From IMG/VR virus record IMGVR_UViG_2724679539_000003, positions 1 through 36,560 of that record: a DNA stretch of 36,560 nt. The stretch is one strand, 5' to 3'. Position numbers and translations under genes: made by a program. This DNA is from a virus. Its lineage: Duplodnaviria; Heunggongvirae; Uroviricota; Caudoviricetes. Position 1 is the first letter of the stretch. Each line of letters begins with the position of its first letter. Below, piece after piece: positions 30,999 through 31,283 of this stretch. The notes below the pieces were generated by a model, which had not been told where the DNA came from, did not search any database, and worked only from the letters and a program-made list of their open reading frames with translations.

Positions 30999-31150
30999 TT
31001 GTAGTTATCTCTCACCTCGCTGATACAGCAGGTGCAAATTGAGGGAACATCATGTACAGCAAATTAGAAGCGGAAACGTCAAAGAAGCCGAACCAATGGA
31101 TAACTGCGGAATAGACCAGGACCAACGAATCCCCAGCCCCAGAAACGACA

Positions 31151-31172
31151 AAACCCGCTCGACGGCGGGTTT
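31151..31172 (-). terminator. Intrinsic terminator-like hairpin upstream of the holin (tR-prime analogue, candidate Q antitermination target)
   Basis: 8-bp stem AAACCCGC/GCGGGTTT with a 6-nt loop; on the minus strand it is followed by UUUUGUCGUUUCU; lies in the 285-bp gap between the holin and cassette B. Confidence 0.4.
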
Positions 31173-31283
31173 AAGCTGTGTGGCGAAGTAACCACTCTTA
31201 ACACGATACAATAATTTTTGCGTACGCGTTAGCGTTTTTGTAAGATTAACAAATAAATCGAAAAATCATAATCGGATGATTTC

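Follow-up and report, generated by a model that had tools for sequence, protein, structure and literature searches.

The window analysed here, a stretch of 36,560 nucleotides from a Caudoviricetes virus (IMG/VR record IMGVR_UViG_2724679539_000003), is that of an SfII-like phage and not of SfII itself, with 96% identity over positions 29717-33171 and differences from SfII in Q and in the interval between the HNH gene and Rz. On the minus strand the genes are arranged in the order RusA, a KilA-N-like gene, a DUF968/HNH gene, the antiterminator gene Q, a cassette in the opposite orientation, a gap, the holin gene S, the endolysin gene, Rz/Rz1, HNH and terminase. The gap (30999-31283) lies within a segment (30900-31400) that is 100% identical in SfII (NC_021857), the gap included in its entirety, and its size of 285 bp, as given in a first, sequence-only reading of this DNA, was borne out by the positions of the holin ORF (30672-30998, minus strand) and the start of the first cassette ORF (31284, plus strand). 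The holin gene is the first late gene, matches PF05106 (E 6.6e-25) and is annotated as S in SfII. In the interval between the HNH gene and Rz lie two plus-strand ORFs (28629-29652; 117 and 208 aa) that belong to PHROG 14397 and 12494 (function unknown) and have no Pfam or PADLOC match; at this place the published SfII record has a copy of IS911 and a different ORF. Two terminator-like hairpins (30092-30117 and 30065-30077, plus strand) are located within the Rz/Rz1 coding region, antisense to the late operon.

The Q gene (32902-33252, minus strand) encodes a protein of 116 aa, counted from the ATG at MRDMYEV in an ORF that reaches back to a TTG at 33267, and it is a member of PF06530 (Phage_antitermQ; E 8.7e-45; 151.9 bits, above the Pfam gathering cut-off of 26). 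It is 44% identical to the Q protein of H-19B and also matches the structures of phage 21 Q (6P18/6JNX; phmmer, E 1.7e-4). Between Q and its target promoter lies a two-gene cargo cassette in inverted orientation (the "cassette B" of the sequence-only reading; 31284-32898, plus strand; ORFs 31284-32306 and 32314-32898), and it is because of this cargo that Q and the promoter, pR', are 1.7 kb apart. The cassette matches PADLOC defence candidates (PDC-M53A, 2e-32; PDC-M53B, 2e-54); for neither gene is there a Pfam match at gathering level, and the PHROGs to which the two belong have no known function. Stx2a_WGPS2 has a related gene pair in the same place (L003 2630-4193).

On its minus strand the gap carries a conserved module (31208 to 31145) with a hairpin at its 3' end, which from 31208 to 31150 reads TATCGT gt TAAGAGTGGTTACTTCGCCACACAGCTTAAACCCGCCGTCGAGCGGGTTTT. 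The hairpin (31172-31151) has the form AAACCCGC-cgtcga-GCGGGTTT with the tail TGTCGTTTCT, the two arms of the stem occupying 31172-31165 and 31158-31151, the loop being CGTCGA and the U-rich tail extending to 31141, and we predict that it is the intrinsic terminator tR' of the late operon (31141-31172, minus strand). It had been described in the sequence-only reading as an 8-bp G/C stem followed by a U-rich tract about 150 nt upstream of the holin; there are indeed eight pairs, five of them G-C and three A-U so that the G/C label is slightly overstated, the U-rich tract (UUUUGUCGUUUCU, interrupted in SfII) is present, and the 3' end of the stem is 152 nt from the holin ATG. Beyond the hairpin, the layout that we infer leaves a 5' untranslated region of the holin message of 146 nt (30999-31144, minus strand), which would be reached after read-through only and which folds no better than its shuffles (z = +1.1).

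Promoter and terminator prediction, by which the earlier reading was to be checked, gave one minus-strand terminator-like site, and in it pR' and the cargo promoter both stayed below threshold. The hairpin is the single site of this kind on the minus strand within 29500-33000 by pattern scan, with no other between pR' and the holin, and its fold of -12.0 kcal/mol is more stable than those of shuffled sequences (z = -2.5). The number of terminator-like sites in the region (three, against 2.8 +/- 1.7 expected) is at chance level, the two promoters score too low to be called by the consensus scan, and the -35 region of pR', TAACGC, is a poor match. Because the promoters miss the scan threshold and the terminator counts agree with shuffle expectation, the case for a control region here is carried by its relatives, and since the hairpin by itself is at shuffle expectation, it is conservation of the module that gives the hairpin its significance.

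The module occurs in 205 phage records and in 2570 of the 5426 complete E. coli genomes (47%), and its carriers include phage 434, DLP12 of K-12 (before the holin gene essD), SfIV, Stx2a_WGPS2, phiP27 and H-19B. A pattern scan of viral contigs yielded 120 loci with 83 distinct variants. The scan of genome contigs with a 16-base pattern gave mostly chance matches in unrelated phyla, the full module being found in Enterobacterales matches only, and true modules are present also in Serratia, Sodalis, Yersinia, Enterobacter, Trabulsiella, Kosakonia, Erwinia, Ewingella and Tatumella. In one contig labelled Chryseobacterium sp. 18061 (L173; Bacteroidota), a Q homologue lies 80 nt upstream of a complete module of the Enterobacterales type, which may be due to contamination or misassignment. 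Similarity between phages does not extend past the T tract, on the far side of which the DNA is shuffled among Q clades. The search of Rfam gave just a sub-threshold match of 31150-31218 (minus strand) to RF00624 (Pseudomonas sRNA P9; 18.4 bits against a gathering score of 43), a similarity that sits mainly in the terminator.

Within the module, the terminator is conserved as a structure. A strict terminator-like hairpin with its T tract is found in 57 of 68 distinct leaders, with the stem ending at a median of +46, and the remaining leaders mostly differ from such a hairpin by a single mismatch or are chance matches. Replacement of the hairpin by unrelated G+C hairpins is frequent, and no fewer than six unrelated stems are seen at this position (CCCGC/GCGGG, CCTCGC/GCGGGG, CCGCCA/TGGTGG, CCCTGCC/GGCGGGG, GGCCTCG/CGGGGCC and CCTCA/TGAGG), each of them followed by Ts. 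A covariance-model alignment was used for scoring because the MAFFT alignment puts two stem families one column out of register; in it 82% of the cells pair, double changes are seen in five of seven pairs, and the covariation score of 0.155 exceeds those of 500/500 shuffles and all slid controls, with the reservation that such an alignment leans towards structure because it is fitted to the model. In DLP12-type modules GAGCTGG recurs in place of GAGCGGG (L009, L020, L024, L111 and about ten more), a change that breaks the third G-C pair of the stem and might make expression of the lysis genes leaky. A 5' mini-hairpin in the leader, GUGGU/GCCAC, was considered and found no support; its partner column varies among C, T and A without compensation, and the other columns were fixed by the search pattern.

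The upstream part of the module would correspond to the late promoter. Its -10 hexamer, TATCGT (31203-31208, minus strand), varies among relatives (TATCGT, TACTGT, TATGCT, TATCCT, TATCAT, TAATCT and others) in such a way that TAnnnT is constant and the inner bases change, as would be expected of a real -10 element, and it always lies 2 nt before TAAGAG. The start site can be placed by homology to the Stx phages, where, according to Sy et al. (2020; PMC7547250), the pR' start was mapped by dRNA-seq/Term-seq, the terminated 3' end lies 258 nt downstream, and RNase E cuts within GU|AUU at +173 of the transcript. The coordinates in that paper disagree with NC_002695.2, and the start was re-derived with the published lengths assumed to be correct: in Sp5, counting back 257 nt from the T run of tR' (998-1003) and counting back from the GUAUU at 917-921 (the +173 site) both lead to a +1 at G745/A746 of TAAGAG, 6-7 nt past TATCAT. 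Transferred to the window, the late operon would start at A31196 or G31197 (minus strand), with its -10 at 31208-31203. With +1 at 31196 the hairpin spans +25..+46, and the predicted product made without Q would be a short late leader RNA of about 50 nt (31145-31197, minus strand).

The start site as placed here falls within a near-invariant initial transcribed block, TAAGAGTGGTTACTTCGCCAC (31180-31200, minus strand), which is a candidate region for pausing and Q loading. The motif TAAGAGTGGT(T/C)AC is found in 77 of 78 modules retrieved via Q. TAAGAG(T) is similar to two known SDPE sequences, TAAGCTG in phage 21 and AACGAT in lambda. At -4..+3 it overlaps the inferred start and lies closer to the -10 than its counterparts in lambda and phage 21, which are at +1..+8.

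The module is linked to Q. In the window the order is that of a late control region, from Q (32902-33252) to the module (31208-31145) to the holin (30998), all on the minus strand. Among the loci of the viral pattern scan, a detectable Q homologue is always upstream on the same strand (104/104; adjacent in 31 and at 0.6-3 kb in 73), the remaining 25 loci having little upstream DNA or being chance matches. A second retrieval was made through the Q protein alone, because selection by motif was to be avoided, and the module was found in 78 of 79 loci, 0.66-3.8 kb downstream of Q (median 1.7 kb). In H-19B and Sakai Sp5 the module begins 10 nt past the Q stop codon. Insertions are frequent in the interval that separates the Q stop from the pR' dyad, with 0.6-3 kb of cargo in 73 of the 104 loci, among it the porin gene nmpC/lc of DLP12 and phage 434; in all 78 SfII-clade loci that were retrieved with the module, this interval measures 0.66 kb or more.

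This dyad, GCGTACGC (31220-31227), together with the adjoining A5/T5 tract (31215-31219), is a candidate Q-binding element (QBE). It lies at -31..-24 of pR', a position that matches that of the QBE of lambda and phage 21, between -35 and -10, and it overlaps the -35 of the cargo promoter. The type of dyad agrees with the Q-protein cluster in 84 of 84 non-redundant loci: the SfII Q clade has ACGCGTACGC (16/16 loci), the QuuD/H-19B clade TTTACRWWCGTAAA (32/32), a third clade CGGTCCGC (24/24), and smaller clades TTCGTTACGAA, TGGAATTCCA, TGTCATGACA and TGTTATAACA (one or two loci per Q cluster). Q cluster and dyad share an adjusted mutual information of 0.93, rising to 0.97 when Q is more than 500 nt away, against 0.36 and 0.27, respectively, for the control, the DNA after the T tract. 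Within one clade the dyad is constant and the spacer and -10 vary, and (C/T)TAA(C/T)GCGTACGCAA is present in 78 of 78 modules from the Q-first retrieval. We keep to the word candidate for the dyad because its symmetry is not that of the direct repeats bound by Q21 and because the phage 21-type QBE sequence, TGAGCA, does not occur on the minus strand in 31196-31290. It is possible, and we put it forward tentatively as an idea that we at present rather doubt than favour, that the dyad (8-14 bp) is the QBE of the Q933W/QuuD/SfII branch of PF06530 and that binding of Q turns the late genes on and the defence-candidate cassette off; the shut-off of the cargo would follow from the overlap of the dyad with the cargo -35.

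The promoter of the cassette was expected by the sequence-only reading to lie in the same gap on the other strand, as a weak TTGCGT-17-TAAGAT pair. That pair is present (31218-31246, plus strand; -35 TTGCGT at 31218-31223, a 17-bp spacer, -10 TAAGAT at 31241-31246) and, as was claimed for it, is weak, falling below the threshold of the consensus scan. We regard it as a candidate sigma-70 promoter, and the expectation is strengthened by the finding of TTGCGT-17/18-TAnnnT in 10 of 11 non-redundant relatives of the same Q clade, with the -10 hexamers TACAAT, TAGTAT, TAAACT, TATTTT, TATATT, TAAGAT, TAGAAT and TAATAT.

Based on the conservation of the module, its linkage to Q and its homology to the mapped promoters of the Stx phages, we consider it probable that an SfII-like lambdoid phage has its late-gene control region in this gap, with pR', a terminator that is overridden by Q, and a cargo promoter placed back-to-back with pR'. 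The function assigned here rests on homology. We propose that host RNA polymerase with sigma-70 would start at pR', transcribe the near-invariant block of 20 nt and meet the terminator at +25..+46, where, without Q, it would release the leader of about 50 nt. Q made from the early operon would bind the promoter, likely at the clade-specific dyad GCGTACGC, and load onto the promoter-proximal polymerase, which would then read through the hairpin into the genes of the holin, the endolysin, the spanins and the structural proteins. The cargo cassette would be transcribed from its own TTGCGT-17-TAAGAT promoter. Comparison with relatives supports the inferences of the sequence-only reading, two parts of which are amended by this model. 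A short late leader antiterminated by Q had been predicted, and the module indeed lies downstream of a same-strand Q and is homologous to the mapped Stx pR', although at about 50 nt against 194 nt in lambda the predicted leader would not be of 6S size; and the gap, which was thought to hold the terminator and the cassette promoter, would hold these and also the late promoter pR' itself.

Any such model must be weighed against the possibility that the hairpin serves mainly as an end-of-operon terminator or insulator, for early rightward transcription that passes through Q and then crosses the cargo in antisense, and is not a regulated target of Q. The hairpin starts 46 nt past the Q stop codon in H-19B and Sp5, a typical operon-end position, and in the window Q and the cargo converge with a gap of 3 nt and no terminator between them, so that early transcripts would reach this hairpin first. 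We nevertheless think this unlikely to be its main role, since the same module contains a conserved -10 and a start mapped in the Stx phages 25 nt upstream of the hairpin, the module is intact where cargo puts Q 0.6-3.8 kb away, and DLP12 has separate terminators directly after quuD and yet keeps the hairpin before essD. The two roles are compatible with each other, and early transcripts that get past Q may be stopped at the hairpin as well.

It is also conceivable, and in our view very unlikely, that the hairpin is an RNA signal for pausing or Q loading and not a terminator, the late genes being controlled by activation of the promoter or by another terminator. In line with this, pR' transcripts of Stx phages reach +258, past the equivalent hairpin, and the poor -35 of pR' in the SfII clade would allow Q to be an activator. 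Against it, the T tract stays with the hairpin even where the hairpin sequence has been replaced, no second terminator-like site precedes the holin, a terminator is annotated in phage 21 at an equal distance, and sigma-dependent pausing in the known Q systems proceeds without need for an RNA hairpin. That the hairpin is a functionless chance inverted repeat in an AT-poor spacer, as the agreement of the terminator-like site count with shuffle expectation would permit, is already contradicted by conservation of the module, with compensatory and replacement changes, across 205 phage records and several genera of Enterobacterales, and can be dismissed as highly improbable.

With the proposed control region, the late switch of SfII-type phages of Shigella and E. 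coli, so far unannotated, is given a place in the sequence. The same compact module, consisting of the -10, the conserved start block and a terminator near +46, is present in about half of the complete E. coli genomes, where it would control prophage lysis genes and Shiga toxin. The assignment of one dyad to each Q clade provides testable determinants of specificity, and the space between Q and its promoter is seen to be a common site of cargo insertion, the defence-candidate gene pair included. The textbook mechanism is unchanged by these findings. If the tentative reading of the dyad as the QBE is true, its geometry would differ from the direct repeats bound by Q21, and the first terminator met by pR' transcripts of Stx phages would be the hairpin at +25..+46, and not tR' at +258.

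Among the closest known systems, quuD-nmpC-essD in DLP12 of E. coli K-12 and phage 434 have the arrangement of the window, with Q, inverted cargo, the module (about 90% identical) and a holin gene. They differ from the window in that the cargo is a porin gene, the holin is of class II (S21-like) and the dyad is TTTACGTACGTAAA. In the published numbering of an essD reporter (-121..+650), the "+1" lies about 350 nt upstream of the module (L008 4375; MG1655 about 576874), and because of this distance it must belong to a different promoter. We take it to be the RpoE-dependent promoter that was reportedly described in a 2015 paper on DLP12, and the DLP12 lysis genes thus appear to have a second, upstream promoter.

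The Stx phages H-19B, 933W, Sp5 and Sp15 share with the window about 58 nt, from the -10 through the first hairpin, at 83% identity, and the homology ends at the first T tract. In these phages Q adjoins pR' and the dyad is different (TTTACGATCGTAAA); in addition, transcription continues for a further 200 nt to a second terminator, tR' (+258), which SfII lacks; this stretch encodes the 74-nt Hfq-binding RNA StxS and has no homologue in the window. A search of the window with StxS_S by blastn-short for a homologue of StxS (EcOnc15) gave chance matches of 9-12 nt only, and beyond the hairpin the window has no homology to StxS, lambda 6S or the phage 21 leader. Sp5 (770-795; L007) and H-19B (2522-2497; L004) have a canonical hairpin with U7 at +25..+50 of pR', upstream of tR' at +258, of which the available part of Sy et al. 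(2020; PMC7547250) makes no mention. Since a 258-nt pR' transcript was detected, this equivalent hairpin (CCCGC/GCGGG and U7) is not fully efficient there, and the Stx-phage libraries may have missed RNAs of about 50 nt.

Lambda follows the same logic: its promoter is constitutive, a promoter-proximal pause region and then a terminator come next, and read-through into S depends on Q. It is unlike the window in that its Q belongs to an unrelated protein family, its leader is 194 nt and its QBE is not a dyad. The first 18 nt of the lambda pR' transcript, AACGATGGGTTAATTCGC (44585-44602; L130 186-203), match the module sequence TAAGAGTGGTTACTTCGC (31200-31183, minus strand) without gaps at 12 of 18 positions, including 10 of the last 11, and this likeness of the initial transcribed regions exists despite the unrelated Q proteins.

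A known system of the same Q family is that of phage 21 (Guo et al., 1991; Yin et al., 2019; Shi et al., 2019), whose Q is likewise a member of PF06530 (87.4 bits). The curated phage 21 record has a -35 of TTGACA, a QBE (ATTGAGCA/AATGAGCA) between -35 and -10, a transcription start at 39541, the SDPE TAAGCTG at +2..+8 and a terminator spanning +3..+50. The two systems are alike in that a terminator close behind the promoter has its end near +50, for a leader of about 50 nt (predicted here). The transcript begins in both with a -10-like block of the TAAG type, CTTAA occurs ahead of the terminator, and a Q-specific element, which here is a candidate, is placed between -35 and -10. They differ in that Q21 binds the direct repeat ATTGAGCA/AATGAGCA (core TGAGCA, subsites at about -26..-13), in place of which the window has the 8-bp dyad at -31..-24, and the -10-like block is here 4-5 nt closer to the -10 hexamer. 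Moreover, in phage 21 Q adjoins pR' and tRNA genes follow the terminator, whereas in the window Q and pR' lie 1.7 kb apart with the inverted cargo between them. Q21-dependent read-through of 21tR' was demonstrated in vitro (PMC6606751), and the nozzle made by Q21 in the RNA exit channel prevents the hairpin from forming; because of homology, the same mechanism would be expected here. The gap thus has the appearance of an ordinary Q-dependent late control region of the phage 21 and Stx-phage type, which is unannotated in SfII.
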